Assembly: GCF_902713615.1 (NCBI RefSeq)
Contig: NC_052158.1
Location: forward strand, 86,436,822-86,500,821
Source: Scyliorhinus canicula
Lineage: Eukaryota
Direction: 5' to 3'
DNA: 64,000 nucleotides
Shown: positions 998 through 57,256 of the stretch, piece by piece
Numbering within the stretch: the stretch's first letter is position 1
How the letters are laid out: each line of letters opens with the position of its first letter
Notes under the pieces: generated by a model
Database searches by the model: none
What the model saw: only the letters and a program-made list of their open reading frames with translations
Told to the model about the DNA's origin: nothing
Made by a program: the position numbers and the translations under genes

Positions 998-1870
998 TGT
1001 TGCTAGGTGTTGCTTTTACTTAATTGCTCTGTTTAATAACCTTTGCTCTCGAGTCGCCAGGTATCTTTCTGATACCATCACGAGGTTCAAAGCCAAGTGC
1101 TGATCAATAACTCAATACACCAGTTAGTAAGTTTCAAACTAAAACACATTTATTATACACAGTCAATCACTACTTATGCATAAACTATACTTATTAAACT
1201 AACACTGCTACTAAAGGCCTATACTTAGCTTTCGAATGGCCCACCAGGTCAGAGGAACAATGGCCTTTGTCCGGTTCTGAATCTGCTGGCTTAAAGTTGG
1301 TATGGAATAGTAGCTAGGAGCGTCTATCTCGTAGCGAGTGTTGACTGGAGACTTACTTGGTTGGTGGAGCTGCTAGACAGGTCTCTCCTTGTTGAGAGTC
1401 ACGGTCAAGAGTTCTTTGAGAGCTGCCAAGACATCCTGCAAAGAGAGCGAACTGAACTTGGGGACTCTACTTTATAGTCCCCAGGGGTTTTGCGCCCTTG
1501 TGGGCGGGCCCCGGACCTGGTCCTAATTAATTGGACCATGTCCCAATCGTTTCAATCGATTTCTCCAATACTGGAGCTGTTCCCTGATCGCTGGGCGGTT
1601 CCTATGTGTCCGTTGGCCTTCCTTTGTCCTGGCTCCCGCTGGCGCTGGGGAGTCTGTCTTGGTCCCGATCGCTTCAATGTATCAAATTGTTCCTGGGGAT
1701 TGCTCATTAATATGTAGATGGCTATTGGTTTCAGTTTTGTCTGGGCTCTGCAAGTCTTAATACACAGGAAACCTTGCACCTGCTTGTTTTCCTGTGCCTG
1801 GCCAATTTTCCCTGTATTCTTTGCGGGCCTCCATATTGGAATCGGGAAGTGGCCACCCAAGGTGGCTACA
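998..1870 (-). repeat. 3' LTR of element A
   Basis: Direct repeat of 6007-6879; on the minus strand a TATA-like CTATAAAG at ~1469-1476 and AATAAA at ~1149-1154. Confidence 0.93.
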
Positions 1871-1880
1871 CTCCCTCCTT
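1871..1880 (-). promoter_or_regulatory. Polypurine tract of element A
   Basis: Minus strand AAGGAGGGAG directly before the TGTAGCC start of the 3' LTR. Confidence 0.85.
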
Positions 1881-2255
1881 GTGATCCTCAACGCGAAGCG
1901 TGAAGGATCACATTACTGCGGTGTCTTCATTCCCTGATCCAGTGAGCACTGCTCCTTGGCCTCTACACTGACCATAACTATGCAATAAAATTTTAACTAA
2001 CAACTCTAAGGGGCCGCTATGTCATAAAGGGACATGCATTACAAAACAAGAACTGGAACCTCTAACTATCCTCAATAAACTACTCTCACTTAAATCATTC
2101 AAACATACTAACTTCCTAACAGCACAAAAATAGCAGCATTCAAATTTTCCTCTGGTTTGGCAGTCAAACACAGAGTTTTACAATCCTTTGGTCACAAATG
2201 AACACATTTCTTTATTTACAAATGAAGGCGCACAAACAAAAATAAAAGTTCTTTA

Positions 2256-2951
2256 TTACATCTCAAGGGGTTCGGGGGCCTGGTGGAAACCGTAAATAGG
2301 GGATCTCATCCTGTATACCGGGGTGCGAGAGCGGTAGGCTCTCCTTCGCCATTTCTTCATGCTAATATTCTGCACGATGCTTGCCAATCAGAGTATTGCC
2401 AATGCTAGAAGTGCTTCGACAACATACGACAATAAACTTATCACACCATGTCGGGGTACTGTTGGTTGTTACTGGGCTCTGTGTACTATGGGGGAGTGAA
2501 CCATTGACAGCCGGTGGGGTGGATGTGAGGGGTTCGCGTTCGCGCGCAACCAAATACACAAGTGTCCAACAAAGAAAGATGGAGGTCGTCTTGGGGCAGC
2601 AGGGTAGCACGGTGGTTAGCATAAATGCTTCACAGCTCCAGGGTCCCAGGTTCGATTCCCGGCTGGGTCACTGTCTGTGTGGAGTCTGCACGTCCTCCCC
2701 GTGTGCGTGGGTTTCCTCCGGGTGCTCCGGTTTCCTCCCACAGTCCAAAGATGTGCGGGTTAGGTGGATTGGCCATGCTAAATTGCCCGTAGTGTCCTAA
2801 TAAAAGTAAGGTTAAGGGGGGGGTTGTTGGGTTACGGGTATAGGGTGGATACGTGGGTTTGAGTAGGGTGATCATGGCTCGGCACAACATTGAGGGCCGA
2901 AGGGCCTGTTCTGTGCAGTACTGTTCTATGTTCTATGTTTTATGTCTTCAT
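2256..2951 (-). pseudogene. Small transmembrane-protein ORF of element A (disrupted by a SINE, one frameshift and one stop)
   Basis: Removing the SINE and one TSD copy gives MKTTSIFLCWTLVYLVAREREPLTSTPPAVNGSLPHSTQSPVTTNSTPTWCDKFI/LSYVVEALLALAIL*LASIVQNISMKKWRRRAYRSRTPVYRMRSPIYGFHQAPEPLEM*; homologous to 20741-21111. Confidence 0.75.
2593..2943 (+). mobile_element. HE1-like tRNA-derived SINE inserted in element A
   Basis: tRNA head with A/B boxes (GGTTCGATTCCC), HE1/V-SINE core, (TTCTATG)n tail, TSD GTCTT at 2588-2592 and 2944-2948. Confidence 0.92.
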
Positions 2952-3724
2952 CTTCTCTTGTCCTGGAGCTTCTGGAATTCTGTGGATACAAGCATAATAT
3001 CTGTTATTATCTTGCCTAAGATCTCGTGTGCTAGTCTGTCTGTCCTTTGGTGCCAATTACCCTTTATAATTGGTCACCATCTGTGACTCCCTCATTTTTT
3101 TTTTTAAACCCAATTTCAGGACCAGACATACATAAAAATACTGAAACAGTGCGAGCTGTCTCGCAGCCTGTGCGATTTGCCATCCAACTGTTTGAGGATG
3201 TAAATAACATGAGGGGAAGCAACCGAAGGGTTACCTTAAAACAAAACAAAAACTTTTGAAACAAAAGAGCCAAAATGAGGTACGTATGGGCCGCGGCAGG
3301 TAAGAATTGGATGGAATCCCAAGGTAGGGCGGATTGTGCTCTACCCGAGCTTAGCTGACCAGAGGGGGGTCCTCAGACAGGGCGGGGATAAGTGCCGTGT
3401 CTCCACTGCCTGAGTAACCGGCAAGAACGGGCAAGAATGTAGTCATCGTGGTGGGTTGCAGTAATGTCTCTACCTTCAAATCGGAAGAGCAGTTATGAAT
3501 TGGGTGCTGGCAAGTTCTCAGCGGTTTCGGCTGATAAGCATGCCGTCAAGTTCTCATAGGTTTCTGCAGACAAATTTGGCCTGGGGCTGTGTAAGGCTGT
3601 TTAAAATTCAAACAAAGAACATTTGACAAACACAAACAAACATGCAACGAATATCGTGCAGGTTCCATCAGAAAGAAGGATACTGTAAATCACATGTGGT
3701 TTGGGGTGTAACTACCATATGGAG

Positions 3725-5682
3725 TCAGTGCAGTGTGACCAATGAAGAGAGGAAGGAGGAGAGAAACAAAATGAATTGGCATTGCTGAGGTGTCCCTGCC
3801 ATGAAAAGTGGTGTGTAAGCGCTCACAGTTTGCATGGGGCAGCTGGGACCTTGTAGTTGCTGTGGGTGGGGTTCTCTTTCATATCTGGGGGCGGGTCTAG
3901 CTGGTGGTGGAGGTCTCCTGCAATCTCGGGCGAAGTTTCCTGGCTGCCCACAAGTGTAACATGACATGGGGGACATAAGGTGGAGCAGGCACTCTGGTGC
4001 ATTGTTCCCTTGGGTATTATTCCCTGAGTGGGGGGTTGGGGCTGTTGGTGTCGTTGCTGGTTCGGGGGGCATTGGTGGGCTGATTCCGTGGCTGTTTCAG
4101 GGGGGCTTGACAGTCTCGTGCGTAATGTCCTAATTGGCCGCAATTATAACACCCCTGGCATTTGGTCTGCTGTGGGCTGTTCCTTCCCTCATTTACCCAT
4201 GCGGGATTTTAATGTGTTTTAACTGGATGCATATCTGCATCTGCCTGCTCTTCATCGGGTTTCCTAAAATTGGTCTTGTGTACTGATTTCTCCCAAGCGC
4301 GGGACAATCTTTTTAAAACCCATTTCTCATTGTGGGCCTCATCTGAGGGGTCATAATTTGCACAAGCTCTCTGACCTGCCTCTGTGGCGTGAGAGATCAG
4401 GATTCGAGTCTATTTTGCCATGTTATCTGGGGACAAATGGGCGCGGGCTAATTCTCCAAAAACTGCCGTGAAAGTAATCCATAAGCGTCCAGCAAACACT
4501 GTGGGGTGTTCAGTTTTCTTCTGCCTGCATCTATTCAGGCCTGCTACTGGGTCTCTATTGTAACCGATCGCATCTAGGATCGCTGTGCGCATCTCTGCTA
4601 GGGTGCCTCCTCCTACATTCTGTGGGTTGGGAAGGGCTGCTACAACGGAAGGGTCTAGGCTCAAAACTGTGAGCTTCACTTGCTCTTTCTCATCCAGGCC
4701 ATACATGGTGACCTGCTGCTTAACTTTTGCAAAGAATTGGTGGGGGTCTGAAGTGGGGAGGAATGGTGTGATTTTCTCACACGCATCCCGTAATTGGGTT
4801 ACGGTTGCGGTGGGTGGTTATTGGATTCATGGGGGTGTGATCTATCTGCTCTGTGGGGGGTTGGGGTGCTCTTCTCTTCTGGGGCTTCTCCTGCGTACAT
4901 GCTCCATGTACATACTTATGCGTTGTTTCATTTAACTCTTGCCAATCGGGTCGTTATCATCATTTAATTGGGATCCAAATGTGCTTTGGAATCCATTCTG
5001 GACTGAAAGCAGAGATTGCAGTTCTGCAATCTGCTTCCGGCACTTTGCATGATTTACCGAGCTCTGCCTCTGTTCCGTGGTGGAAGCATGGAGTGTTCAT
5101 AGAGCTGCCTTTAAATCGCTGCACTGCTTCTGCAATGCCTCTACCTGCTGTTTCGTTTCTTGTCTTACCAGGACTGCACGTTGTGTGTCCTGGATAGGCC
5201 TGGTCATATTAGGTTTGGAAGCTGCTTAAGTGCGCCAGACAAGACTGGTGTGCCCTCTTGGCATCATCCAACTCTCTGTCTTTTGCTGCCAACCTCCCTT
5301 TTAACTCTCTGTTCTCCTTCTCTATGTTGCTTACATCGACTTTACTCATCCTATTTCTCTCATCTATCTCTTTACGGAGCGTCCTAACGACCTCCTCTGT
5401 GCCTCGCAATTGTGCCAGACAGGACACGATTGCCATCGGCTTGCGAGCTTTTCCCAAGCTCTTCCTGTGAATCTCTGTCAGGTTCTCCCACCAAGTATGT
5501 CCTATACTCCCGGGACCTGTTTCTTCATTTGCACAAAATTCGCTCTAAAGGGGCCATCCCTTCCCTTTGAGGTACTTCCTAATCTCATCTTCCCAAACGG
5601 GACACTGTCCTACTCTGCTGCTGGTCGCTGCTACCACGAATTCTTGCGGGTTCATAAGGCGTTCCATTGCCTTCATTGCCAT
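3725..5682 (-). pseudogene. gag: gag of element A (frameshifted)
   Basis: Begins MAMKAMERLMNP..QCPVWEDEIRKYLKGKGW; coiled-coil segment; capsid-like MYGLDEKEQVKL..PQNVGGGTL..RQKKTEHP; CCHC knuckle CYTCGQPGNFARDC near 3920-3962. Confidence 0.85.
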
Positions 5683-5978
5683 TTTTCCTATCTGAGTTCT
5701 CTTTAAATTCGGAACAGGGGGTAATAAAGCGGTGCTGCAAATACGGGTATGGCTTTCGCTAATTTCCAGAATACAAACTCCCGACAGTTTTTCGCAACAG
5801 AATCTATCAGTTTTACCTTATAGCCCTGTTAGTACGCATGCATTAACACACTTCCGAATTCTGGAGGATTGATCAGAACGGCTTGAACACTTGTGGTTAT
5901 TTCTGTTCTCAATTGGATTCTAATTCAAATTTTGGGTTCTCTCGGAGTTGAGGGGGGGGGGGGGGGGGCACTTCTAAG

Positions 5979-6002
5979 TCGAGTCCCGTCAAAGTTCACC
6001 AA
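5979..6002 (-). promoter_or_regulatory. Degenerate primer-binding site of element A (tRNA-Arg-like)
   Basis: TGGTGAACTTTGACGGGACTCGAC 4 nt after the 5' LTR; aligns with the PBS of element B. Confidence 0.6.
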
Positions 6003-6006
6003 TAAA

Positions 6007-6879
6007 TGTTGCTAGGTGTTGTTTTTACTTAATTGCTCTGTTTAATAATCTTTGCTCTAGAGTTGCCACTTATATTTCTGATACCACCACGAGGTTCAAA
6101 GCCAAGTGCTGATCAATAACACAATACACCAGTTAGTAAGTTTCAAACCAAAACACATTTATTATACACACAGTCAATCACTACTCATGCATAAACTATA
6201 CTTATTAAGCTAACACTGCTACTGAAGGCTTATACTTAGCTTTCAAATGGCCCACCAGGTCAGAGGAACAATGGCCTTTGTCCGGTTATGAATCTGCTGG
6301 CTTCAAGCTGGTATGGAATAGTAGCTAGGAGCGTCTATCTCGTAGCGTGCGTTGACTGGAGACTTACTTGGTTGGTGCAACTGCTAGGCAGATCCCTCCT
6401 TGTTGAGAGTCACGGTCAAGAGTTCTTTGAGAGCTGCCAAGAGATCCTGCCAAGAGTGCGAACTGAACTTGGGGACTCTACTTTATAGCCCCCAGGGGTT
6501 TCGCGCTTTTGTGGGCGGACCCCGGACCTGGTCCTAATTAATTGGACCATGTCCCAATCGTTTCAATCGATTTCTCCAATACTGGAGCTGTTCCCTGATC
6601 GCTGGGCGGTTCCTATGTGTCCATTGGCCTTCTTTGTCCTGGCTCCCGCTGGCGCCGGGGAGTCTGTCTTGGTCCCAATCGCTTCAATGTATCTAATTGT
6701 TCCTGGGGATTGCTCATTAATATGCAGATGGCTATTGGTTTCGGTTCTGTCTGGGCTCTGCAAGTCTTAATACACAGGAAACCTTGCACCTGCTGTTTTC
6801 CTGTGCCTGGCAAATTTTCCCTGTATTCTTTGCGGGCCTACATTTTGGAATCGGGAAGTGGCCACCCCAGGTGGCTACA
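6007..6879 (-). repeat. 5' LTR of element A
   Basis: Direct repeat of 998-1870, followed on the minus strand by the PBS and gag. Confidence 0.93.
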
Positions 6880-7324: not shown

Positions 7325-8170
7325 CTAATTATTGAGTCAGTGCAACATACTGATCAATAATGCAGGAGTCATAGCAATGCAATGGTGAGCTATTTTAAAG
7401 CGTAGGAAATCTGCTGCATGGATTAGGAAAGGGAGAAATTCACACAATTTCATTTAGACATTCCCCTCTCCACTTTGAACCATGGGGTTTTTTTGTGAAT
7501 CCTTAATATAGACTAGCAGATAGCGTCTTTGTGGCCAAAGGGCACTTTGGAAGAAAAATGTAACACTATAACCTATATACGGATAAAATCTGTGATTCTG
7601 TAGGTACAGAGACCCACTTACTGAAGGCGTAGAATAAACCCCATGCTGTTATTCAATGTATTAGATAACAACACATTATTTCATTAGGCATAAGAGCACA
7701 TAGGGTCCCCCAAAATGTCATTCTTGAAGTTGTTTATTTTTCACTGATTGTAAGATACATATAATTTTGCTACACAGGGACTTAACCTACTTCAGAGCTG
7801 CAAATGCTTCTGATCCTCTTTGGAAAAAACAAACTTCTAAATGACAATATGAGTGACTACTCTTGGTGCCCACACTAAGTTTTGAAACAGTGGGATACTG
7901 ACAAAAATGAAATAAAGTAACAGAATTATGTTGGGATCTGTTGAGGCTCACCCTACTACCATCCAGAATATTCACACCCTGTGAGCAACACCACTATTAT
8001 AAAATGAATGTAGCAACATCCCAGCATTGATAGAATCATGGCTTTTGAATGGTAACGACATCTCCCTCACTAAAGCTTCTGCATCTCTCTATAAATGTCT
8101 TCACTCGCCTTGTTGACGATGCAGTTCACTTCCTGACCTAAAGGAAAAGAAAAATTTGCATTTGTATAAA

Positions 8171-9786
8171 CCCCAGCAGCCCACAACTCACTCACACCCA
8201 CCATCACAGCTTCCAAAGTCAGATCGGTCTTCCTGAAAGTGAACCCTCGGAAGACGACGGGCCCGGACGGGATCCCTGGTCGTGCACACAGAGCCTGCAC
8301 GGACCAGCTGGCACAGGTGTTCGTGGACATCTTTAACCTGTCCCTACTCCACTCCGAGGTCCCCACCTGCTTCAAGAAGACCACCATCATACCGGTGCCA
8401 AAGAAGAACCAGGCAACGTGCCTCAATGACTACCGTCCGGTGGCCCTGACTTCAGTCCTAATGAAGTGCTTAGAGAGGTTGATCATGAAGCACATCACGT
8501 CCATACTCCCAGAACGCCTTGATCCATTGCAATTCGCATACTGTCGCAACCGGTCCACAGCAGATGCCACTTTCCTGGCCCTATACTCATCCCTCGAGCA
8601 TCTCGACAAGGACTCCTACATCAGACTCCTATTTATTGACTACAGCTCCGCCTTCAACACCATAATCCCAGCCAAGCTCATATCAAAGCTCCAAAACCTA
8701 GGACTTGGCTCCCCACTCTGCAACTGGATCCTCGATTTTCTGACCAACAGACCACAATCAGTAAGAATGAACAACAACACCTCCTCCACAATAGTCCTCG
8801 ATACCGTGGCCCCGCAAGGCTGTGTACTTAGCCCCCTACTCTACTCCCTGTACACACACGACTGCGTGGCAAAACTTGGTTCCAACTCCATCTACAAGTT
8901 TGCTGACGATACGACCATAGTGGGATCTCTAATAACGACGAGACAGAATACAGGAGGGAGATAGAGAACCTAGTGGAGTGGTGCAGCAACAATAATCTCT
9001 CCCTCAATGCCAGCAAAACTAAAGAGCTGGTCATTGACTTCAAGGAGCAAAGTACTGTACACACCTCTGTCAGCATCAACAGTGCCGAGGTGGAGATGGT
9101 TAGCAGTTTCAAATTCCTAGGGGTGCACATCTCCAAAAATCTGTCCTGGCCCACCCATGTCAACACTATCACCAAGAAAGCACAACAGCACCTATACTTC
9201 CTCAGGAAACTAAGGAAATTCGGCATGTCCACATTAATTCTTATCAATTTTTACAGATGCACCATAGAAAGCATCTTATCTGGCTGCATCACGGCCTGGG
9301 ATGGCAAATGCTCGGCCCAGGACCGCAAGAAACTTCAGAGAGTCGTGAACTCCGCCCAGTCCATCACATGACCCTGCCTCCCATCCATTGACTCCATCTA
9401 CACCTCCCGCTGCCTGGGGAAAGCAGGCAGCATAATCGAAGATCCCTCCCACCTGGCTTGCTCACTGTTCCAACTTCTTCTATTGGGCAGGAGATACAGA
9501 AGTCTGAGAACACGCACAAACAGACTCAAAAACAGCTTCTTCCCCGCTGTTACCAGACTCTTAAATGACCCAGATATGGACTGACCTCATTAACACTACA
9601 CCTTGTATGCTTGATCTGATGCTGGTGCTTATGTAGTTACACTGTATACCTTGTGTTGCCCTATTATGTATTTTCTTTTATTCCCTTTTCTTTCCATGTA
9701 CTTAATGCTCTGTTGAGCTGCTCGCAGAAAACTCCTTTTCACTGTACCTCGGGACACGTGACAATAAACAAATCCAATCCAATCCA
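8171..9786 (+). mobile_element. 5'-truncated Rex1/Babar-type LINE (RT, frameshifted)
   Basis: ORFs 8239-8964 and 8973-9371 with [50 protein letters not shown]; AATAAA and (AATCC)n tail. Confidence 0.9.
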
Positions 9787-12783: not shown

Positions 12784-13544
12784 TGTAGTCATCTAAGATG
12801 GCCACCTGCAAAGGACCATGGGAATTATGGCCAACCCAGGACTCGGACAGATACAGAGCCGATATGTATCTGAAACACAAGTAACCAGGCCTGATCGAAA
12901 CCCCCGCTCGTTTGCATTTTAATGGTCCATTTTCCCAGGACAATAGAACTCAAATCAAGCAACCGGCACAGAGACAGACTGATTGGCACCATTCCCTTTA
13001 CTCAGAAAGCCCAACTGCCAATGACCGCTAAGGACCTGCGAGACACCAAGGCACTCACCTCTTTATTGGCCGAAATCGGACAGTGATCAGAGCCCTGTCA
13101 AACTGTTGGGTCCAAGGTAAAGGACCGCCCCAACGAGCGCAAAATCCCAGAGGGACAAAAGAGAGCACAGCCATGTGTTCTGTCTCTTTTGGATCCGGCC
13201 TGTGCCAGCCCAATTGCAGCAGGGACAGCCAGCCAGGTTCAAGACCAATGATCGCTACCTGATGGATGAGCAAAGCAGAGACAGAGCCACTTTCTTCGAA
13301 CCAGCCAAGTGAAATCCAGATAAAGGCCTTATCCATTTGCACAGTGCTGGTCACCCTGAAGTTAAGTATAGGTTATTGTAGCTGATAGGTGTAGTTTAAC
13401 TCATAGTAGACATTGTGGTTGCATGTTGAGATAACTCTTGTGTATGTGAATAAACCATCTTTTGAACTAACTAACTGGTTGTTTGGTCATTTGATTGATA
13501 TAAGGGAAGGCTTGTGGTTCACCAACATTATTAATAGAGCAACA
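12784..13544 (+). repeat. 5' LTR of element B
   Basis: Direct repeat of 21475-22237; AATAAA near 13449. Confidence 0.93.
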
Positions 13545-13548
13545 TTAT

Positions 13549-13566
13549 TGGCGACTCTGGTGGGAC
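13549..13566 (+). promoter_or_regulatory. Primer-binding site, tRNA-Arg(UCU)
   Basis: TGGCGACTCTGGTGGGAC is the reverse complement of GTCCCACCAGAGTCG-CCA, the 3' end of vertebrate tRNA-Arg(TCT) as I recall it. Confidence 0.85.
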
Positions 13567-13853
13567 TTGATTAGAAGTGACCTTATCACTCCAAGAGACC
13601 CCACAAACTTTGAATCCAATTGCGAGAAAGAGAAAGAAGCACAAGTCCCATATCGACCAAATAACCGAATTTTGGAAGTATGAACTAACCCCGCATGCGT
13701 ACCTAATAGGAAGGGTAAGGTAAACTTGTTAGAATTCTGTACAACTATCGAGGGGTTGTGAGTCAGAAAATAGCTTAAGCCATACCCATTGTTCAAATCG
13801 CCGCCTTATTCCCTTGTCCCAAATTAAAAGTAGAGAAAGAGATAAGAGAAGTA

Positions 13854-15592
13854 ATGGCCACTAAACAATGGAAAGATTGATGAATGCACGGGAACCCAAG
13901 GTCGCAGCGACCAACAGAGCAGAGCAATACCCCATATGGGAGGAAGAGTTAAGGAAATACTTAAAGGGGAAAGGATGGCTCCTTCGGTTGAATTTTCGCG
14001 CTAATGAGTCAGGTCCAGGAAAGATAGGACAGACTTGGTGGGAGAACCTAAGCGAGGTCCACAAGAAAAATGTAGGGAAAGTCAGAAAGACGATAGTGTC
14101 CTGGTTGGACAGTTGCAAGGCACAGAGGAGGTCGTGAAGATGCTCCGTAGGCAGTTAATTGAGAAGGAAGAAAAGAATGAGGGAAACAGTAACAAAAGTG
14201 AGAAAATAATTGAGCAACTCCGGGAACAGTTAGCAGCTAAGGATAAGGAAATAGCCGATGTAAAATGCGCACATCTATCTTGTCTAGTTCACATTAGAAG
14301 CTTCCAGACCCAGAACGATAAAGGCTACCAAGATACACAGTGTGCAGTCCTGCTAAGAGAGGAAACAGAACAACAGGTCGCCAAGCTAACTAGGAAATGC
14401 GCAGATTTAAAAGCAGCTTTGAGATCGCTCCACGGCTCCATTAAGGAACAGAGACAGAATACCGTTGACCATGGTAAATGCCGATAGAAGATAGAAAAGT
14501 TACAGTCATTACTCAGTGCAGAATGGCTTCAGGTACACTTTCGGGCAGGATTTAGACGAGGAAGATGCTCCCGATTGGCAAGAGTTAAACAAAAGCTCCC
14601 AAAGATACGTAGAGGACACGGGAAATCAAAATTGAGCCCCCCACGCCCCAAAAAGAAAAGCACCTGCAGCACTGACTGCACAGGCAGCACACACCCCCCT
14701 TACAATTCAATCCCCATGAATTCGGTTACCACACAACGCACGTCATCAGATCAAGAGGAGCCTGATATCATTTACACCACCCCACTATCCATAACCCAAT
14801 TAAGAGAGGCTTGCACGAAAATTGGTCCATTCCAGTCCACCGCAGACCCGCACAGCTTCTTTGAGGAGATGCGTCAACAGAAAGTTATGTATGGCCTAGA
14901 TTAGAGAGAGGAAGTAAAGCTAATAGTTATGAGCCTTAGCCAGTCTGTAGGGTCAGCTTTGCCAGAACCCCAAAATGTAGCAGGGGGAACCCTACAAGAC
15001 ATGAAAACAGCCATATTAGATGTCATTGGGTATAACAAAGGAGATCCAGTCAAGGGTTTAAATCACTGTAGGCAAAAGAAGGGGGAACATCCGACCACAT
15101 TTGCTGGTCTAGGGATTAATTTCATGGCAGTCTACGGACAATTGAACTGCGCACACCTAAATGAGGACACCACTAAATGGTCCCGCACCTCAGTCTCACA
15201 TGCCACAGACACAGGTCAAAAGGCTTGTGTAAACTACTACCCCACAGACCACAGACACAATGAAGTTTGGGCATTGAAACAATGTTCCAAAGCATGGGAA
15301 CAAACCCTAGACCAACAAACAGATCAGGACAAGATAGAAGCACCCAGTTAGGATTAGCCAGGACCCAGCATGGATAAATGAGGGTAGACACGAGGGACAG
15401 CACCCCAGAGCACAGGCACCATGAGGTTGTTAGAATTGTGGCCACATGGGACATTTACGCCCGCGATTGCCGACAAACCCCCCGAACCATCAACGATACC
15501 AACAACCGAACCCCCCACCCAGGAACATTGTTAGGCCCATGCATAATGTTCGCACCTGTTCCGACGACTTAGCATTTAATTCCCTAGATTGA
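13854..15592 (+). pseudogene. gag: gag of element B (frameshifted)
   Basis: ORF pieces 13868-14137, 14035-14487, 14575-14904, 14929-15351 align with element A gag; decayed knuckle C*NCGHMGH/ARDC near 15425-15470; ends in TGA-CGG. Confidence 0.85.
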
Positions 15593-18500
15593 CGGTGTTT
15601 GACTCCCCAACTTGGGTCTGTGACACACGCTGGGACAAATTAGGAAGACCAGTAGTTACAGGCACAGTCCAGATACACACAGTCGATTTTCTTTGGGACA
15701 AAGGAGGATCCCACACCACTTTAAACTCCTCCACCACGTTTCAACAGGACAAATGGCCCACCACAGACACCAACACCCTGAGTGGATTCAAGGGCACATA
15801 CAGCAAGGATATATCACAGCTCCCATACCATTCAGATAGGGATGATTAGAACCAAACACGCTGTTGTTTTAGTTGACTTACCCCAAACCACAGAGCACAT
15901 TTTAGGCATTGATTTTATGAGCTCCCATAACATTTCATTTGACCCAGTAAACAAATGTGTATCGCGAATGGCCAAAACAGCTAGGGCACCCGCTACGCTC
16001 ACAGTAGGGGATTATTAAAACAGGATTTGTTCAGTAGGGGACTATTGGTTTAATCCGCAAACAATTAGCGCAGACTAGACAATTAAAGAGGTCCTCATAA
16101 AACACAAAGCGTCCTGCGCACAACACAAAACACGACTGTGGGAAAATCCCAGGTGCAGTAAAGATTTCAGGTCCTGATCCAAAGCCGCAAAAGCAATACG
16201 GTTTCCCACAGCAAGCCGAGGGTGAGATTTCAATGGTTATTAATGGTTTGTTAGACCAAGGAGTTATACGACCTGTAGTGTCCACAAATAATGCCCCAAT
16301 TTGGCCCGTAAAAAAGCCCGATGGTTCATGGCGACTAACGATTGACTACCGAGAACTTAATAAGGTAACCCTGTTAGCAGCCCCCACTGTTGCCATGAGT
16401 CCAGAGACCATGCTCAAACAGGGAGTACAGGCAAAACATTTCACATTGCTGGACATCAGCAATGGCTTTTGGTCCATCCCGTTAGACAGGGCCTGCCAGT
16501 ATAAATTCGCATTTACGTTTCAAGGGCAGCAGGTCACGTGGACATGCCTCCCACAAGGATTCCATAACTCCCCTTCCATTTTCCACTGACAGTTGGCCAG
16601 AGGACTTTCTAAATTTTCCCGACCTGAATGCCTCATACAATATGTAGACGATCTGCTCTTGCAAACGGACACAAAAGAGGAACACCTAGAGCTCTTATCT
16701 GAATTACTAGGCCTACTGCGATCAATCGGACATCAGGTAAACCCCCAAAAGGCCCAGAATTTGAAGGAAAAGGTTCTTTATTTAGGCTATCATCACCCAC
16801 GGGAAGAGAGAAATTGAGCAAAAACAGATCGAGTCCATCGTTAAATTGCCCCAGCCCCAAAATGTCACTGCACTCCGGTCATTCCTAGGTTTGGTAGGAT
16901 ATTGCACAAATCATATAGATGGCTTTGCCACTAAAGCAGCCCCACTCTCAGAGCTCCTTAAAAAGAGCGCCCCATGGTTAATGGCTTCTGCAGTACACAG
17001 ACGCCATTGATGATTTAAAATGCGCTCTAGGCACAGCCCTGCTTTACAAGTTCCAGACCCAGGCTTGCCCTATACCATAGAAGTAGCAACCACCGACCGA
17101 ACCCTATCAGCAATACTCCTGCAAGAACAACACGATCACTTAGGACCCGTAGCCTTGCCTCAAGAGTATGAGACCCCGTACAGCAAGGATTCTCAGCCTG
17201 CAAACGGCACTTGCTTGCAGTACAGTACTTTGCGTACATCACAGGCCTCAACCTAGTAACGATCTTGACTGAGCACACCCCATGCAACTATTACTAGACG
17301 GTACATTAAAGGATGGTTCAGTCAGCCAAATCAGAGCAGCTCGCTGGACACTACTGTTACAAGGGACCCCACGAGTGCCAAATCATATGCAGGGACCCCA
17401 CATGAGTGCCAAATCATAGCAGCCCAACACCACGCAGGACCCTTTATCCCAAAATTACTACACCCATGAGCAGGCAATAAGACACAGGATTTCCAAACCA
17501 CAGGGAATGCTTTAAAAATGAGACGGTTCCTCCACAATCAAAAATGGAGTTAGAATTACTGGTTGTGAAATTTACGTGGAAAACACGCAGGGACGCCCAC
17601 TAGAAGAGATCTCTTTAAAATTGCCCGGCCACCTAGGTTCACAAGCAGCAGAACTCGCAGCCATAGCCTATGTAATTCAGCATCCCGACTCTTTTCCAAC
17701 TCCCACAGACATACACTCAGACAGCCTGTATGTGTGCAATAGTTTAACAGAATTTCTGCCCCTGTGGGAATCTCTTGGTTTTGTTTCAGCCGATGGAAAA
17801 CCCCTACCCTCTGCCCCGTTGTTAAAGGACATTCTCAAGAAAGCCTCAGACTGCACATACGGTATTATTAAAGTAAGAAGCCATCATTGCTCCTCCCCAC
17901 CTGGTAATGTAAAGGCAGAAGCCTTAGCCAAAGCAAGATCACGCCATGGTCACTTCTAGCAGCCACCCGAAAGCCAACCGATACAGGTTTCCCAGACCAA
18001 TATTGAGGATCTATCCCAAGCCCAAAAAGCAGACGACACCTTCAAACAGGTTTTAGACGGCAACTTCCCAGCCCCCTATGATAAATGGAAGGACGCACTG
18101 GCTGAACAGGATGACATAGTTTTAAAAAACGAAATTTATGTGGTCCCCACCCAGGACAGATACCAGCTCATTTACCAATTTCATAATGGACACTGACATC
18201 AGGGGACAGACAATACCATTGCCCATTTAAGACCATTGTGTTGGTGGCCTGATTTAAAAAGCAATGTAACCCATTATGTCGAGAATTGCCTTATCTGTGC
18301 TCAGAAACAATCCTGAACATTACTCAAAGAAAAGGGCAATTACGTCACACCCAACATGTGAATGGCGCTTGGACAAAATTTCCAAATCGATTACATTGGC
18401 CCCCTTGCCCCTTGCAGATATGGTTTCAAGTATGTGCTGGCTGTAATCAGCACCTTTACTAAATGGGTAAAAGCATTTCCCTCACGGACAAACACAGCAA

Positions 18501-19200
18501 AGGTCACTGCTGAGATTTTGACCCAACAGATATTCACACTCTGGGGTCTCCCCCACAGCATTGAGTCAGACCAAGGCTCCCAGTTCACCGGCAGAGTCAT
18601 GCAAAATGATTTAACAATTTTTGGGATCGGGCAGAAATTCCATATAGCATATCACCCCCAAACCAGCGGCATTGTTGAGAGAATGAATCGAACTTTAAAA
18701 GCGACCATTAGGAAGATGGTGCAACAGAACAATACCATGTGGGGCATGGTCTTCCCATTTGTTCTCATGTTTATTCGGAACACCCTTTCCAGTTCAACAG
18801 TTTTCACCCCCACGCTCTCATGACTGGATGGCCCATGAACGGTATTGAATATTTATTTGGCCTCGATTTGGCAAGCCCTACAGTAACCGTCCTCTCCCAC
18901 GAAAAAGCATCCAAAAGGTTACAGATGACATTAAAGTGGCACAACTCGCTGCAGCTGTCTGATTACGTTCTCGAAGGAAGCAGAGTAAAGAATGCTTTGA
19001 CAAAGCCATCCACCCCGTAGAGCACACAGTTGGTCAGCAAGTAATGGTTTCCCTTTACAATCCCAGTTCTTTCCTCTCCCCCAAACTTGCACGACCCTAC
19101 TTCATTTCAGATAAAGTGAGCCCCTCCGTGTACAAGATAATGTACCCCAACGGTAAAACTGGTTTGTTCCACATCAACCAACTCTAAGTCCATGGATCAT
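15593..19200 (+). pseudogene. pol: pro-pol of element B (protease, RT, tether, RNase H, integrase)
   Basis: FLWDKGGS (protease); QKQY..NNAPIWPVKKPDGSWRLTIDYRELNK, LDISNGFW, LPQGFHNSP, YVDDLL (RT); SQAAELAA..SDSLYV..KVRSH..GNVKAEALA (RNase H); FQIDYIGP, SDQG, VERMNRTLK (integrase DDE). Confidence 0.93.
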
Positions 19201-20740
19201 AATGTAGCCACTCCCACCACATCTCTCTGGCAATAAGAGATGATTACTCCCCGCCCATCAACAACCTAGTCCAACCCCTATGCCAACCCTCCCCCAGCCA
19301 TGCAGGCATTTATCCCTTGTCCATGCCCACAGACCCGAACTTGGCTCCACCCACAGGTACAGACTTTCACCTTGAACTTGACTCAGACGACAGCGAGAGC
19401 CTCATGGATTTGATTACTATCCCTGACCACTGGCGCGATCTCTCTGCCCCCAGTCACCCCAGCCCTCAGAACCACAACTTCGATATCTTTGACTCTCTAT
19501 ATGCCCTCCCCCAGCCACCGCCTGACCACAGTAACTTGCCCTCCACTCCCACCACCCCAACGCCTCACAACAAACAAGCCCCTCTTTGGCACCGCGACAA
19601 CTCTTGCAGACTAGTAAGGCACGGCGATTCGGATTATCCGACAGCCCACGCGGCCGAGGCACAGAAACAGCAGAAATTAGTCTGGCAATCGTGAGATGGT
19701 GGTGATTCAGATACTGACGCTCGTTTTGGTTAATGCTGTTACAACACTGTTTGGTACAGAACCCTGAGGTGTCCAGATGATGAGAAAGAGACACCGCCTA
19801 AGTATTAATGTGTCCTAGTTCTGATGGAGCCTGCCCGCCTTTTTCTTTTTTTTTCTACAACATGGTTTTAAGTCATGTCGCCCGACACACAGTTACTCTT
19901 CTGATTCGAGGGTAAGATACCCAATGTCAGTTAAAGGCACAATGTTGTGGGGAAACAGATCACTGTTCTCTCAGTCTTTATGACACATTTCCACACAACT
20001 ACAAACTCTTACCGTCCACCCAGGTAGGAAGTAACGGCACTGATCCCCACCCTACCCGAGGACTCCAAATGCATCCGGTCAGTTAAGCTCGGGTAGTGGA
20101 GTAACGGCACTATGCCCCGCCCTACCTGAGGATTCCACCCATTCTTATCCTGTAGCGGCCCACATGCACCTCATGTTCCCTTCACTTCATATGCTCTCGA
20201 ATTGTTCTCTACACTCTGCGTTGTATTTGGCAGGCCTTAGTTTCACCTTCTCAACTCTCCCTTTGGTTGTGGTATAAAGAATGCATTTTGCCACGGTTTG
20301 CACGCACATCCCTTCTTTCCTTTACCTTCCGCGACTCCCTGGTCGGTACCCACCTGCTATTTACACGTACGACAATTGGTTGTTACACACGCTGCTAAAC
20401 GCAAACTACCTCTGAACCCTGGGATGGAACTCTATAAAACTGGCAGCCCTGAAATCCGACTGGTTAAGATGAGCCTCAACCACCACTGGTTGCAAGTAAA
20501 GAAAAGACTGGTCGAAGAAATTGTCATACCACTCCCGCACCGACCACAAGCTGCGAGAGTTTCTGCACTTTAAAAATTTGCATTTCTTGTCTCTCAAAAT
20601 GGTATTTCAAAAAAAAATTTTTTAAATGAGGGAGTCACACATGGTGACAATCATAATGGGTAATTGGAGTAAGGACAGAAAGACTAATAAAACGAGATAT
20701 TAACCAAAGATAATAACAGATACTATGCTTGCATCCCCAG

Positions 20741-21111
20741 GATCACCTGGAAAACAGAAAACACAGGGTGAAGCAAGGACTGCTGACATGCGTTTGGATC
20801 ATTGCTGGAGTTCTGCAACTATGCACGCAACGGACCGTTATAACAAACCCCACACCAGCCCCGAACACTACCACACAACAGGCCACCACCAGCCCAGACA
20901 CTACACCACACAAAGACAGATATCGAAACCCCCACTTGGTGCGAAAGCATTGCCAAATGGAACCCCCTTTCATACAGAGTAGAGGCCCTTCTAGTAAGTG
21001 CAATAATCTGCAGTGTCATTCAGACACCGACTCCGTAAATGGCAAGCAAAAGCCTCCCGCTCCCCGACATATAAAGTCCGATTTCCCTTCTTTGGAATTC
21101 AACAAAATTAA
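20741..21111 (+). pseudogene. Small transmembrane-protein ORF of element B (two frameshifts)
   Basis: DHLENRKHRVKQGLLTCVWIIAGVLQLCTQRTVITNPTPAPNTTTQQATTSPDTTPH/KTDIETPTWCESIAKWNPLSYRVEALLVSAIICSVIQT/RLRKWQAKASRSPTYKVRFPFFGIQQN*; follows a splice acceptor at 20740. Confidence 0.75.
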
Positions 21112-21474
21112 ACTCATGTACCAATAGCGGCTAAAAATAAACCATGTACATCTTTAATTTTTGCTGCTGTTGTAAATTTTGTACTGTATATAAGTTCTTT
21201 GATATTCACCAGCAGCACGAGAGTAGCTCAGATAGTGTTAGCCAGAGATCCACTGTGTGGATAAATTAAATGTTTTATAGAGACCTGATTATAGTAACCG
21301 TTAGAGATGAATTGATTTATGGATGTTTTAATGGAATATTAGGTAAATGTCCCAAACCAGAAGATAGAGTAGAGTAGAACCTTGCCTTGACCAAAATTGA
21401 CCGAGCCACCAAGGATGAACAGGGATCGATAGTGTGATCCACCACGCTTTGCGTTCAGGATCAAAAGGACGGAA

Positions 21475-22237
21475 TGTAGCCATCTAAGATAGTCACCTGC
21501 AAAGGACCTTGGGAATTATGGCCAACCCAGGACTCAGATAGATACAGAGCTGATGTGTATCTGAGACACAGATAACCAGGCCTGATCAAAATCCCCGCTC
21601 GTTTGCATTTTAATGGCCCATTATCCAAGGACAATAGAACGCCAATCAAGCAATCAGCACAGCGACAGACTGATCGGCGCCACTTTTTTTACTCAGAAAG
21701 CCCAACTGCCAATGACCGCTAAGGACCTGCGAGACACCAAGGCACTCACCTCTTTATTGGCTGAAATCGAAGACAGTGATCAGAGCCCTGTCGAACTATT
21801 GAGTCCAAGGTTAAGGACCACTCCAAAGAGTGCAAAATCCCAGAGGGATAAAAGAGAGCACAGCCATGTGTTCTGTCTCTTTTGGATCCGGCCTGTGCCA
21901 ACCCAATTGCAGCAGGGACAGCCAGCCAGGTTCAAGACCAATGATCGCAACCTCACGGATGAGCCCAGCAGAGACAGAGCCATTTTCTTCAAACCAGCCA
22001 AGTGAAATCCAGATAAACGCCTTATCCATTTGCACAGTGCCGGTCACCCTGAAGTTAAGTATAGGTTATTGTAGCTGATAGGTGTAGCTTAACTTGAAGT
22101 AAACATTGTGTTTGCATGTTGAGATAACTCTTGTGTATGTAAATAAACCATCTTTTGAACTAACTAACTGGTTGTTTGGTAATTTGATCGATATAAGGGA
22201 AGGCTTGTGGTTCACCAACATTATTAATAGAGCAACA
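21475..22237 (+). repeat. 3' LTR of element B
   Basis: Direct repeat of 12784-13544, preceded by a purine-rich tract. Confidence 0.93.
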
Positions 22238-23581: not shown

Positions 23582-24373
23582 TGTTGCTCTTTTTAACTGG
23601 ATACAGATATGACAGTTATTAATGATGAGATTGCTTTTCAGAGTCGCCAGGTATCAAATGATACCCCCACAAGGTTTTACCGGATATCGATCAAAGACCA
23701 AACCAGTTAGTTAGTTCCAGTTCAATGATAGTTTATTTGCATTCAAGAATTACTTGGACATGCAACATAAAACACTACAAGCTAAATTACACCTAACACA
23801 CAACAACCTGTACTTAACTTAAGGCACCCGGCTTTATGCAGAGGAACAAGGCCTTTGTTCGGATCTTGAATGGCTGGGTCTGGAGAAGTGACTTCGTTCC
23901 TGCTGGGCTCATCCGTCTGGTAGCGATCGTTGGTCTTGAACTTGTCTTCTGGTCGTGATGCTAAACTTGGTTTTAGGCATAGGTCTGGGCCAAGAGAGAC
24001 CGAGCGCCGGGGCCAAGAGAGACTGAACACATGCCAGTGTCTCCCTTTATCCTTCCTGGGTTTTGCGCTCTTTTGGGCAGTCCTTAGCTTTGGACCCAAT
24101 AATTCAGCAGGCTTCAATTACTGCCTTCGATTTTGGCCAATAAAGGGGCGGGTGGCTTGATGGCGGGGCGTGTCCTGAACGGTCATTGACCTTAGCTTTT
24201 TGGGCTCCCTGAGCAAAGGTAGTGGCACCGATGAGTGTTTCTGTATCTGTTACCCGAGTACAGGTCTTTTGTTCTGGGGAAATGAGTCCTGGGTTGACCA
24301 TATTTCCCATGGACCTTTGCAGGTGGCCATATTTCCTGGGATCCTTTGTAAGTGGCCATCCCTGATGGCTACA
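23582..24373 (-). mobile_element. Solo LTR of a third member of the A/B family
   Basis: TGTTGCTC...GATGGCTACA ends; clear similarity to the element B LTR (GCCACCTGCAAAGG..CCATGGGAA, TTCAAGACCAA.GATCGC); perfect 4-bp TSD GTTA. Confidence 0.9.
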
Positions 24374-35027: not shown

Positions 35028-38000
35028 TGTGGTGATCCACTGTGTTAACTGTGTGCACCTGTATTAGGGGATGTACAGTAGGACCTACACTACAGGTTCG
35101 CCGGTAGCCCCTGCCGGCTAGCTCCGCCCACAAGGAGCCATATAAATAGGTATGACTCTTCCTGATCAGCCATTTCGCCAGCTGCAGTAGGAGGCCACGC
35201 ATCTGACTGTAATAAATCCACAGTTGTACCAATCTGAGTCTTTCGTGCAATTGATAGTGCATCAATTTATTACAGTCAGATTTTCCACATTAAGGACATC
35301 AGGATCAAACCCGATCGCCTGCAGCTGGATCCACACTCGCCAGACGCCAGAAAGGACTTTATTCACTGGCTGGCTTGCTTTGAGGCCTATATCAATGCTG
35401 CGACCCCCGCTCCGACGGAAGCTCAGAAGATCCAAGTGCTTTACTCCAGATTGAGCTCCAGCGAGTTCCCGCTAATCCAGGACGCCCCGAATTACGCAGA
35501 GGCTATGGCTCTCCTTAAAGAGAACTACGTTCAGAAGACGAACACACTCTTTGCTAAGCACGTTCTCGCCACTCGCGTACAACTACCTGGTGAGTCGATC
35601 GAAGACTTCTGGCGGGCTCTTATCCCACTCGTACGGGACTGGGACTGTCAGGCCGTCACGGCCATGGAACATTCCAATCTCCTCATGCGAGACACATTCG
35701 TGACGGGGATTGCATCGGACCCCATCCAACAATGACTGCTGGAAGGGGCCACGCTCAACCTAGTGGAGACAAAAGCTTTAGCGCTCTCCATGATGGTCGC
35801 ATCTCGCAACGTCCAATCCTACCACGCTCGCCGCGCGGCCCACCCCTCCTACTCCTCTTGGACCCCGCAAATGACCCCCCCGGCAGGGGCCACTCCTGCT
35901 CAATATGCCTGCGCCGTCCGCCACACCATGCACCCTGGGGGTCCCCGCTGTTACTTCTGCGGCCAGCGGAAGCACCCCCGCCAGCACTGCCCAGCCCATG
36001 CCGCCACTTAGTGGTAAGAAGTGCTACTTTGCGGCAGTGTGCCAGGCACACGCAGTCGCCGCTATCGCGCCCGAATTCACTCACTTCCCCCAGCCGATCG
36101 CACAATGGACGCCGCCATCCTCTGCTCCCGGGGCCACGTGCGACCAGTGGGCGCCGCCATCTTCTACCCCCAGGTCCACGTGCGGCCCATGGGCGCCACC
36201 ATCTTGCCACGCCCCCACAAAGTGCACTCCATGGGCACCGCCATTTTGCCCCGCGCCCGCAATGTGCACTCAGTGGACGCCGCCATCTTTCTCTGCCCCT
36301 ACAACGTGCGCTGCGTGGGCGCCGCCATCTTCTCCTCCACAGGTCCTCCGGATGCCGCCATCGCCACTATTTGGTCTTCCCCACGGGACTGGAACGCTGG
36401 ATCCGGGTCGCCGACGCTCCACATCTGAATCCTCGGACGACCACCCGCTGCTTGTCTCTATGACACTGGACCAGTTCCGTCCTCACAACCTGGCCACCGG
36501 GAAATCAACGGCCACGCGACCTCTTGCCTACTGGACTCCGGGAGCACCGAAAGCTTCATCCACCCGGACACGGTAAGGCGCTGCTCCCTCACGGTCCACC
36601 CCGCCAACCAACGTATCTCCCTGGCCTCCGGATCACACTCTGTCCCGATCCGAGGGTTCTGTGTGGTCAATCTCACTATCCAAGGCATGGAATTCAGCAG
36701 TTTTCGCCTCTACGTTCTCCCCAACCTCTGTGCTGCACTATTGCTGGGTCTAGATTTTCAGTGTAATCTCCAGAGTCTCACCCTCAAATTTGGTGGGCCC
36801 CTACCCCCACCAACCGTTTGCGGCCTCACGACCCTCAAGGTTGGCCCCCCTACTTCTTTGCCAATCTAACTGCGGACTGCAATCCCGTTGCCACCAGGAG
36901 CAGACGGTACAGCCCCAGAGCAAGGCCTTCATCAGGTCCGAAGTCCGGCGGCTGTTTCAGGTGGTTATAATCGAGGCCAGCAATAGCCCCTGGAGAGCCC
37001 AAGTGGTAGTGGTTAAAACTGGGGAGGAACACAGGATGGTCGTGAACTACAGCCAGACCATCAATCAGTACACGCAGCTCAGCGCATACCCCCTCCCTCG
37101 CATATCTGATATGGTCAATCAGATTGCACAGTACCGGGTCTTCTCAACGATCGACTTTAAATCCGCCTACCACCAGCTCCGCATCCGTAAATCGGACCGT
37201 CCATACACTGCCTTCGAGGCGGACGGTCGCCAGCGCACAAGTAGACCAACTCCGGGCCCTGCATGACAGCCTTTGTCACCCGTGGGGTCACTCGATTATA
37301 CCACCTCGTCAAAGCCTGCAATCTGCCCTACTGCATCGAGGAAGTACGGACAGTCACCAGAGACTGCCAGGTCTGTGCGGAGTGCAAGCCGCACTTCTAC
37401 CGGCCGGACCGTGCATGCCTGGTGAAAGCCTCCCGCCCTTTTGAATGCCTCAGCTTGGATTTCAAAGGGCCCCTCCCCTCCACTGACCGCAACACATATA
37501 TCCTCAGTGTGGTCGATGAATTCTCCAGGTTCCCCTTTGCTATCCCATGCCCCGATATGACGTCCGCCACCATCATCAAGGCCCTCAACTCCAGCTTCGC
37601 TCTGTTCGGTTTCCCCAACTACATCCACAGCGACTGGGGATCCTCATTCATGAGCGATGAGCTGCGTCAGTTCCTGCTCAGCAAGGATATCGCCTCCAGC
37701 AGAATGATCAGCTACAACCCCCGGGGAAACGGGCAGGTAGAGAGGAGAACGGGACGGTTTGGAGGGCCGTCCAGCTGGCCCTACGGTCCAGAAACCTCCC
37801 AGCCGCTTGCTGGCAGCAGGTCCTCCCGGATGCACTGCACTCCATCCAGTCTCTACTGTGCACCACCACAAATAACACACCATGAAAGTGTTTTACCTTC
37901 CCTAGGAAGTCCACATCCGGGGTGTCGCTCCCGACTTGGCTGGCAGCTCCAGGACCGGTTCTTCTACGTAGGCATGTACGACTCCACAAGTCGGACCCCT

Positions 38001-38707
38001 TGGTGGACATGGTACGCCTACTCCACACCAACCCCCAGTATGCCTATGTGGAGTTCCCTGACGGCCGCCAGGATAGGGTCTCACTCAGGGACCTGGCTCC
38101 CTCAGGTTCCACTCACACACTTCCCCACCCACGCGCCACCCTCCCCTCCCCCGGCACTCCCAGCATTAGCCCCACCAGGTCCATCCCTCCTTCCCCTGCC
38201 CACGCTACAGGACGAGGAAGACTTCAGCACGCTCCCAGAGTCATCCAACTACTGGCCAACACCAACACCGCCAGCACCGACGTCGCAGACGCCAGCACCG
38301 ACTTCGCCACCGCCGCTACGTCACTCCCAGTGAACCGTCAAACCACCGGACATGCTTAACCTCTGACGGGCACTAGATGGACACATTTTCTTTCTCCCCT
38401 CCCCTCTGTAAATTACTCTGGTATAGTTCCACGCCACCCCCGCCGGACTCATTTTTAACAGGGCGTGAATGTGCTGATCCACTGTGTTAACTGTGTGCAC
38501 CTGTATTAGGGGATGTACAGTAGGACCCAACACTACAGGTTCGCCGGTAGCTCCTGCCAGCTAGCACCGCCCACAAGGAGCCGTATAAATAGGCATGACT
38601 CCTCCTGATCAGCCATTCTGCCAGCTGCAGTAGGAGGCCACGCATTTGACTGTAATAAAGCCACAGTTGTACCAATCGGAGTCTTTCGTGCAATTGATAG
38701 TGCATCA
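35028..38707 (+). mobile_element. Ty3/Gypsy (Mag-like) LTR retrotransposon, internally deleted
   Basis: LTRs 35028-35264 and 38470-38707; perfect 5-bp TSD AACCT; gag with Cys/His knuckles; protease LDSGSTES; RT start (SNSPWRAQV..IDFKSAYHQ) joined directly to integrase (H..LCH..CQVC, LDFKGP, HSDWG). Confidence 0.93.
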
Positions 38708-38879
38708 AACCTCTTAAAAACACATTTGCATTTGACGTTTCCAGAGGAAACCAATGCGGCATGAGTTTTCATTTAAAAATGTTAAAATGCAGATACTCCA
38801 GTTATTTTTAGAAATATGTGAAATGCCCACTCTAACAAATTTATTATGAGGAGTGTGATTCCTAACGAAAATCAAATGT

Positions 38880-57073: not shown

Positions 57074-57256
57074 GGGGCTGTTTAGCTCACTGGGCTAAAT
57101 CGCTGGCTTTGAAAGCAGACCAAGGCAAGCCAGCAATACGGTTCGATTCCCGTAACAGCCTCCCCGAACAGGCGCCGGAATGTGGCAACTAGGGGCTTTT
57201 CACAGTAACTTAATTTGAAGCCTACTCGTGACAATAAGCGATTTTCATTTCATTTC
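57074..57256 (+). mobile_element. Short tRNA-derived SINE (second family)
   Basis: A box TAGCTCACTGG, B box GGTTCGATTCCC, (TTTCA)n tail; antisense copy at ~63525-63705; tail-only piece at ~28220-28265. Confidence 0.85.

Follow-up and report, generated by a model that had tools for sequence, protein, structure and literature searches.

Comparison of two broken proviruses with their relatives indicates that a small membrane-protein gene of the catshark Scyliorhinus canicula is a genuine gene of an endogenous retrovirus (ERV), situated in the env position, and apparently a real viral gene that is as yet undescribed. It occurs twice in the 64,000 nucleotides analyzed here (the window), once in a gag-only provirus (element A) and once in a longer provirus (element B), and neither of these copies is able to make the protein (Table 1). 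No published description of the gene was found in the literature listings and passages covered, and the family may be catalogued in Repbase or Dfam. Natural uninterrupted copies are present in RefSeq, which makes the reading proposed below testable.

Table 1. Coordinates of the features of elements A and B within the window
Feature	Positions	Strand	Remarks
Element A, gag-only provirus	998-6879	-	
3' LTR of A	998-1870	-	873 bp, TG...CA; 94.5% identical to 6007-6879
Polypurine tract of A	1871-1880	-	Purine run adjoining the LTR, in a block common with B
Small-gene body of A, pseudogene	2256-2592	-	Signal peptide, stalk, membrane segment, basic patch, and tail; 50-61% identity to four relatives
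In-frame stop inside the membrane segment	2388-2390	-	Placed by 4/4 relatives in frameshift-aware alignment
Frameshift between TWC motif and membrane segment	2428-2436 (near 2430)	-	Placed by 4/4 relatives
Probable off-frame stretch, end of signal peptide	2533-2562	-	Sliding-window scores; forced by 2/4 relatives
SINE target-site duplication, 5 bp	2588-2592 (left), 2944-2948 (right)		Direct repeat
tRNA-type SINE	2593-2943	+	351 bp, antisense within codon 3 of the small gene
5' end of the small gene of A, including the start codon	2944-2951	-	ATG at 2951-2949; start matches that of P0016
Splice-acceptor region of A	2980-3010	-	AG ends at 2980, 29 nt upstream of the ATG
Non-coding block common to A and B	A 3272-3426, B 20007-20177	A -, B +	72-77% identity, z 29.5; internal repeat in B
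gag of A, broken	3725-5682	-	Three frameshifts and five stops within 4074-5682; two CCHC knuckles, no pol after it
Candidate splice donor in the leader of A	5810-5819 (GT at 5816)	-	7/9 consensus, match only
Primer binding site of A	5984-6001	-	TGG-led 18-mer after the 5' LTR
5' LTR of A	6007-6879	-	4-bp flanks match at 3/4 bases
Element B, LTR-gag-pro-RT-tether-RNase H-integrase-small gene-LTR	12784-22237	+	All parts broken, no env
Splice-acceptor region of B	20710-20740	+	27/31 bases identical to A 2980-3010
Small-gene copy of B	20768-21111	+	Start codon position reads GTG; frameshifted near 20910 and again near 21030

The gene is common to both proviruses and to natural relatives

The original prediction had aligned the small frame of element A with element B and considered it older than the split between the two. 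Both points stood, as the two copies are 68% identical in DNA over 215 columns (z 8.4, exceeding all 200 shuffles) and B has the gene in the same place. At the protein level, the copy in B, with the same position in its element as that of A, was 46% identical over 112 aligned residues to P0016 (XP_072363218), a predicted protein of Scyliorhinus torazame. Differences between A and B fell at third codon positions in 22 of 45 cases (P = 0.02; four gap-free blocks), the same share as in gag (67/136), a pattern that is supportive rather than proof given that matching residues served as anchors for the codon blocks, a choice that favors a third-position excess. Homology and codon pattern together rule out a chance ORF.

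A word-based protein search at 61 to 195 residues scored none of 12 candidates, the relatives being models of 204 to 254 residues and outside that range. With the membrane segment plus tail as the query against 1.84 billion representatives and no length limit, six proteins were retrieved at an E value of 0.001, among them three relatives (E values of 4e-11 to 9e-4), namely, XP_038648067 and XP_038635067 from S. canicula and XP_072344540 from S. torazame. A profile search of 6,031 candidates returned the same three and, as a fourth, P0016. The other three proteins of the first search were attributed to chance similarity caused by repeats and set aside; these were P0008, a protocadherin in which nine stretches are repeated, and the repetitive P0009 and P0010.

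The four relatives are 47 to 68% identical to each other, 50 to 61% to A, and 41 to 52% to B. All of them maintain an uninterrupted frame from the Met through the membrane segment to the basic patch, and three of the four have a homologous tail. The original prediction hinged on a frame running unbroken from the TPTWC motif into the membrane segment, and such a junction is present in every one of the four, which are RefSeq XP predicted gene models seen without their genomic context and may belong to pol-bearing families. Beyond this set, the small gene had nothing near the cut-off in Pfam, the small protein had no PDB profile match at an E value of 10, none of 79 BFVD viral-fold matches reached an E value of 0.001, and none of 16 IMG/VR pattern matches was confirmed. 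The Atlas gave no usable hit, as the nearest named clusters (TMIE, 0.86; influenza M2, 0.85) fell short of the 0.9 threshold. A likeness of the helix start to CD3-zeta/FcR-gamma found no support in the same PDB profile search.

The copy in element A is a pseudogene

A SINE with a 5-bp duplication had been predicted directly after the first two codons, and it is indeed there, breaking codon 3. Motifs resembling A and B boxes and a tail made of short units are present, and related copies elsewhere in the window are 84 to 89% identical. It is probably HE1, the name also given in the original prediction; Rfam had no match in positions 1 to 25000. HE1 is named in PMC10468316. The interval from 1900 to 3400 was partly present in 20 of 24 sequencing-run rows.

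Below the SINE, the frame runs without stops to just past TPTWC, as had been claimed. The view of a real ORF carrying a SINE was upheld, but not that of the SINE as the sole damage, since the gene is also frameshifted near 2430 and interrupted by the stop at 2388-2390, which rules out an intact gene that is only masked. The end of the signal peptide as originally read (about 2560-2535) is likely to be off-frame as well, given that a window of eight codons at 2556 scored 24 in another frame versus 5 in the frame originally read. This stretch (2533-2562) probably contains a compensated frameshift pair. The copy in element A is a pseudogene, dead several times over and not merely hidden by the SINE.

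The two firm breaks in 0.33 kb of the small gene correspond to ca. 6 per kb (up to 12 per kb if the frameshift pair is real), and the eight breaks in 1.6 kb of gag correspond to 5.0 per kb, all of these being small counts. The closeness of the two densities fits decay of both genes after insertion, and the protein was probably intact until about the time that element A inserted. The LTR pair of A has a K2P distance of 0.052 over 871 sites, and that of B has a distance of 0.078 (92.3% identity). When the flanks were inspected for a 4-bp target-site duplication, those of A agreed at three of four bases and those of B showed no clear duplication.

Element A is the one copy in which the gene stands in a pol-less context, and the original inference of a lineage that lost pol and retained the gene is based on this single copy. 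Its region 3111-3860 was no more similar to the pol of B than shuffled sequences were (z 1.2; 40 shuffles). The gag frame was 78 to 86% identical to four RefSeq proteins of S. torazame, the sole hits among 654 candidates. Both CCHC knuckles of the A gag lie within 3725-4208, with zf-CCHC above the cut-off twice, while there is a single knuckle in the B gag and in the RefSeq Gags P0003 to P0005 (zf-CCHC above the cut-off in P0003 and P0004). The second knuckle hints that A represents a family of its own, rather than a simple deletion of the type of B and P0003 to P0005. In being a gag-only, nonautonomous form, A is similar to BHIKHARI, and in lacking pol it resembles zebrafish Bik-2 (bioRxiv 10.1101/2024.03.25.586437). 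However, the available text of that preprint describes Bik-2 with neither pol nor env, while A keeps the small membrane gene, and the Gag of Bik-1 has a glycine-rich patch where that of A has zinc knuckles.

In S. torazame, P0003 and P0004 (XP_072337111 and XP_072354093) are annotated genes whose Gag frames are open over 543 and 579 residues, respectively. By analogy with zebrafish BHIKHARI, they may possibly be expressed Gags. The predicted structure of the P0004 Gag (pLDDT of 42) was too poor for a fold search.

Evidence for a probable env-type spliced mRNA

The best-conserved block between A and B is non-coding (2949-3110; 85% identical, z 31), and both elements have a splice-acceptor region ahead of the small gene, a feature that the original prediction did not mention. 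The match of P0007 to A begins at 2979. P0016 contains a galectin domain truncated at Pfam position 86 of 132, after which its residues fit, by eye, the frame from 2979. Two of the four RefSeq models switch to element-like sequence at the acceptor and the other two lack a clear breakpoint, acceptor use being read here from the protein breakpoints of predicted models. Together, the acceptor conserved between A and B and the two models joined at it point to an env-type spliced mRNA, from which the small protein was very probably made. By eye, no TATA box shared by A and B was seen upstream of the small gene.

The donor-like motif of A at 5816 is also found in B at 13720. The two leaders (5810-5845, minus strand; 13690-13726, plus strand) have a short motif in common, with a branch-point-like sequence and an AG ca. 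10 nt before the candidate donor.

These gene models could also be taken to mean that the shark itself uses uninterrupted copies, as a membrane protein or as an exonised tail on host transcripts, with any viral role being secondary. In each of the four RefSeq models, the viral part is preceded by unrelated sequence, which in one case includes two thirds of a galectin domain (positions 1 to 86 of the Pfam profile). However, divergence among the four is as great as that between them and the dead copy, and their upstream parts differ, which argues against orthologues of one host gene, and the chimeras are explained by read-through into a strong proviral acceptor. We therefore consider co-option by the host very unlikely. 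The galectin-like model P0016, joined to the viral gene, is possibly a case of gene trapping or exonisation at the proviral acceptor.

Architecture of the predicted protein

Counted from the true Met, three of the relatives have 114, 115, and 120 residues, and the fourth is cut at 94. The N terminus, with a hydrophobic peak and an A/G-x-A/T site in all four, is predicted to be a cleaved signal peptide. After the predicted cut, there is an ectodomain of 41 to 47 residues, 45 to 54% of them Ser, Thr, or Pro, with an N-glycosylation sequon at positions 29 to 33 in each relative. Two cysteines are also present in all four, one in the TWC-type motif and the second near the end of the helix, and an acidic residue is conserved at the start of the helix. 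The single membrane helix (KD19 peak of 1.7 to 2.4) is followed in all four by 6 to 8 Lys or Arg residues in 14 and then by a tail of ca. 35 residues that contains Tyr. Mean identity rose from 0.31 in the signal peptide and 0.41 in the stalk to 0.65 between TWC and the end of the helix and 0.83 in the basic patch, and it was 0.47 in the tail. AlphaFold predicted a signal helix, a disordered stalk, and one long helix, with no ectodomain fold, at low confidence (mean pLDDT of 58).

Given its position between pol and the 3' LTR, the probable spliced mRNA, and the signal peptide, the gene is similar to a retroviral env. However, it differs from a retroviral Env in having no SU/TM, furin site, fusion peptide, or heptad repeats and a total of only 114 to 120 residues. 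Within the window, no env-sized frame besides the small gene is present in A or B, and there is no Pfam hit to any env, including the PF00523 type (Mononegavirales fusion glycoprotein). One explanation would be a passive remnant with little or no function, produced when a single ancient deletion inside env, in the common ancestor of A and B, joined the start of env (signal peptide and beginning of the stalk) to its anchor and tail. The exact env position, the env-type acceptor, and the order of parts, with the signal peptide first and the anchor and short tail last, are as expected of such a remnant; loss of env accompanied by spread is common in ERVs (reference cited in bioRxiv 10.1101/2021.11.23.469661), and a catshark consensus has a 1,326-nt stretch labeled env by position in which no env domain was reported in the available text (PMC10699275). 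However, relatives that are only 47 to 68% identical have each retained a single uninterrupted frame and share a short layout, the third-position excess equals that of gag, no vestige of a furin site, fusion peptide, or heptad repeat is visible, and the search of 1.84 billion representatives without a length limit found no longer relative. A passive remnant thus appears unlikely, with the data opposing a lack of function rather than an origin from env.

Element B and its retroviral affinity

The Pol of B was compared with solved structures (PDB), to which the nearest-Pol comparison is confined. The best match of the RT was foamy virus (125 bits, versus 69 for MLV and 64 for Ty3), the integrase was also nearest to foamy virus (78 versus 41 bits), and the RNase H matched foamy virus only, at an E value of 1e-5. 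To our knowledge, there is no lokiretrovirus structure for comparison. In Pfam terms, B has a RT_RNaseH_2 tether piece (E value of 1e-4, below the cut-off) followed by RNase_H (E value of 3e-11). A tether with a second RNase H is common to all retroviruses and Odin (PMC9040795) and hence non-specific. These matches assign A and B to the endogenous retroviruses of a foamy-like or loki-like kind. An origin from Gypsy/Metaviridae is ruled out by the foamy-like Pol and the second RNase H.

Similarities to the foamy-like ERVs of fish and amphibians (FLERVs) (PMC5210030, PMC5512871) include the Pol of B, closest to foamy virus, and the presence of accessory ORFs near the 3' end; a 4-bp target-site duplication like that of FLERVs fits the flanks of A at three of four bases and those of B not clearly. 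Unlike the FLERVs as described in the available parts of these papers, there are CCHC knuckles in Gag (absent in teleost FLERVs) and no full env, the GGGTG at the border of polypurine tract and LTR is in neither A nor B, and the genome is 9.5 kb versus 12 to 17 kb. For the ghostshark, the detection of only pol of a foamy-like ERV is mentioned (PMC5512871). With lokiretroviruses (PMC7947760) the elements have in common a dual RNase H and a helical, coiled-coil-like N terminus of Gag, but they have no env related to the paramyxovirus fusion protein, and the host list in the available text of that source contains no sharks.

A further described element for comparison is ERV-Spuma.0-Sca of Scyliorhinus canicula (PMC10699275), with a spuma-like pol, 9,220 nt, LTRs of 866 to 869 nt, and the same host genus. 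Its 3' region bears the label env although no env domain was detected there, it does not begin with TG, and none of the 12 feature rows in the available material is a small membrane ORF (PMC10699275). None of nine DNA motifs of A and B was found for it in the supplement, whose lines break every 31 nt so that misses are possible, and one 8-mer of these motifs matched elsewhere in that file (PMC10699275).

The primer binding sites of A (5984-6001, minus strand) and B (13550-13567, plus strand) differ. We take that of B to resemble tRNA-Arg. The non-coding block common to both elements (3272-3426 in A, 20007-20177 in B) is a candidate packaging or export element; its predicted folding was no better than that of shuffles (z of 0.44 and -0.65).

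A possible role in cell-to-cell spread

Vertebrate ERVs without env are taken as confined to the cell that expresses them. The protein described here is too small and unfolded for a receptor-binding fusion machine, and we tentatively propose, at slightly worse than an even chance, that it is an envelope substitute for cell-to-cell spread. In active elements, splicing would join the donor in the leader to the acceptor located 29 nt upstream of the ATG, and the product of this mRNA would be a type I membrane protein of 114 to 120 residues, with a signal peptide cut after an A-x-A-type site. Outside the cell, it would have a glycosylated, unfolded stalk of ca. 45 residues, with one helix crossing the membrane and, inside the cell, a basic patch and a short Tyr-containing tail. 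It might gather capsids, made of a Gag that lacks the myristoyl glycine, at the cell surface and assist their transfer to cells in contact, in the way proposed for the insect sORF2. The explanation as a whole (a pseudogene copy of a true gene at the env position, spliced mRNA, type I protein, and envelope substitute) falls somewhat short of an even chance.

This proposal draws on the small size of the protein, the conserved helix and basic patch, a Gag without Gly2 (residue 2 is Ala in A and P0004), the dependence of foamy viruses on Env, and the sORF2 precedent. Foamy Gag needs Env to bud and binds the cytoplasmic N-terminal leader of Env (PMC3649970). The small protein has no such leader, so that any contact with Gag would need a different surface, which counts against the proposal. 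A modeled complex of Gag residues 1 to 240 with the mature small protein scored 0.00 and favors neither side.

As for the precedent, MDG1-group LTR retrotransposons of insects such as Drosophila move from cell to cell although they have no env, and sORF2, one of their products, is a small membrane protein (PMC11952523). Like sORF2 and the reovirus FAST proteins, the catshark protein is a small single-pass protein, in this case of an env-less LTR element, with an N-out/C-in orientation, a basic patch after the helix, and a length within the FAST range of 80 to 200 residues (PMC11952523). Some lepidopteran sORF2 genes are located downstream of pol, as the small gene is here, and some sORF2 proteins also have no Gly2 motif (PMC11952523). 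On the other hand, the host element is a foamy- or loki-like ERV of a vertebrate instead of one of the Metaviridae, an env-type spliced mRNA is indicated here, and there is no sequence link to sORF2. There is a cleavable signal peptide with a sequon in place of Gly2 myristoylation, the ectodomain has 41 to 47 residues versus about 30 (PMC11952523), and no amphipathic signal was detected. Residue 2 of the relatives is K, R, T, and K, with no Gly2 myristoylation motif, and the hydrophobic moment of the membrane-proximal segment was equaled by 29 to 64% of shuffles. Judged by Gly2, ectodomain length, and amphipathicity, the protein is not a member of sORF2/FAST, and the absence of two of their hallmarks (Gly2 and the amphipathic segment) speaks against an envelope substitute.

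The protein could also act as an accessory factor, down-regulating host surface proteins (such as receptors, restriction factors, or molecules of the immune system) by means of its membrane helix and Tyr-containing tail and taking no part in the spread of particles. Vpu and the adenovirus E3 membrane proteins are models for such action on host surface proteins. The cleaved signal, the short glycosylated stalk, the conserved acidic residue at the helix start, and the Cys at its end would suit this function, as would the nearest named Atlas clusters, which are small membrane proteins although below the bar, and in fish foamy-like ERVs several accessory ORFs near env are under purifying selection (PMC5210030, PMC5512871). 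However, Pfam, PDB, and BFVD gave no sequence or fold link to any protein of this sort, the tail is less conserved than the basic patch (0.47 versus 0.83), and env-less elements confined to germ cells would usually need little defense against surface immunity. All in all, we regard an accessory role as rather unlikely.

If an envelope substitute is indeed encoded, it would be a candidate route for envelope-independent spread in a vertebrate, from a deep-branching shark retrovirus, and would bear on how retroviruses gained and swapped env. A broader version, in which a vertebrate retrovirus lineage swapped env for a small capsid-moving membrane protein with a signal peptide, arriving independently, for a second time, at the sORF2/FAST strategy, and in which the gene was important enough to be kept even by a gag-only satellite family, seems doubtful to us. 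The copy in element A itself adds little beyond the occurrence of the gene in a pol-less element, which could keep this region merely as sequence between needed cis signals.

Other elements in the window

A lone LTR-like piece (23684-24373, minus strand), 68 to 69% identical to the LTR of B, is a third member of the family. A separate LTR element at 35084-38708 (plus strand), with 182-nt direct repeats and pieces of RT and integrase, is probably of the Gypsy type. There is also a fragment of a non-LTR reverse transcriptase at 8170-9371 (plus strand; RVT_1, E value of 4e-28). ARAGORN called a tRNA-Ser at 57074-57165 (plus strand), inside an arm of a 159-nt inverted repeat pair, which may be the head of a SINE.
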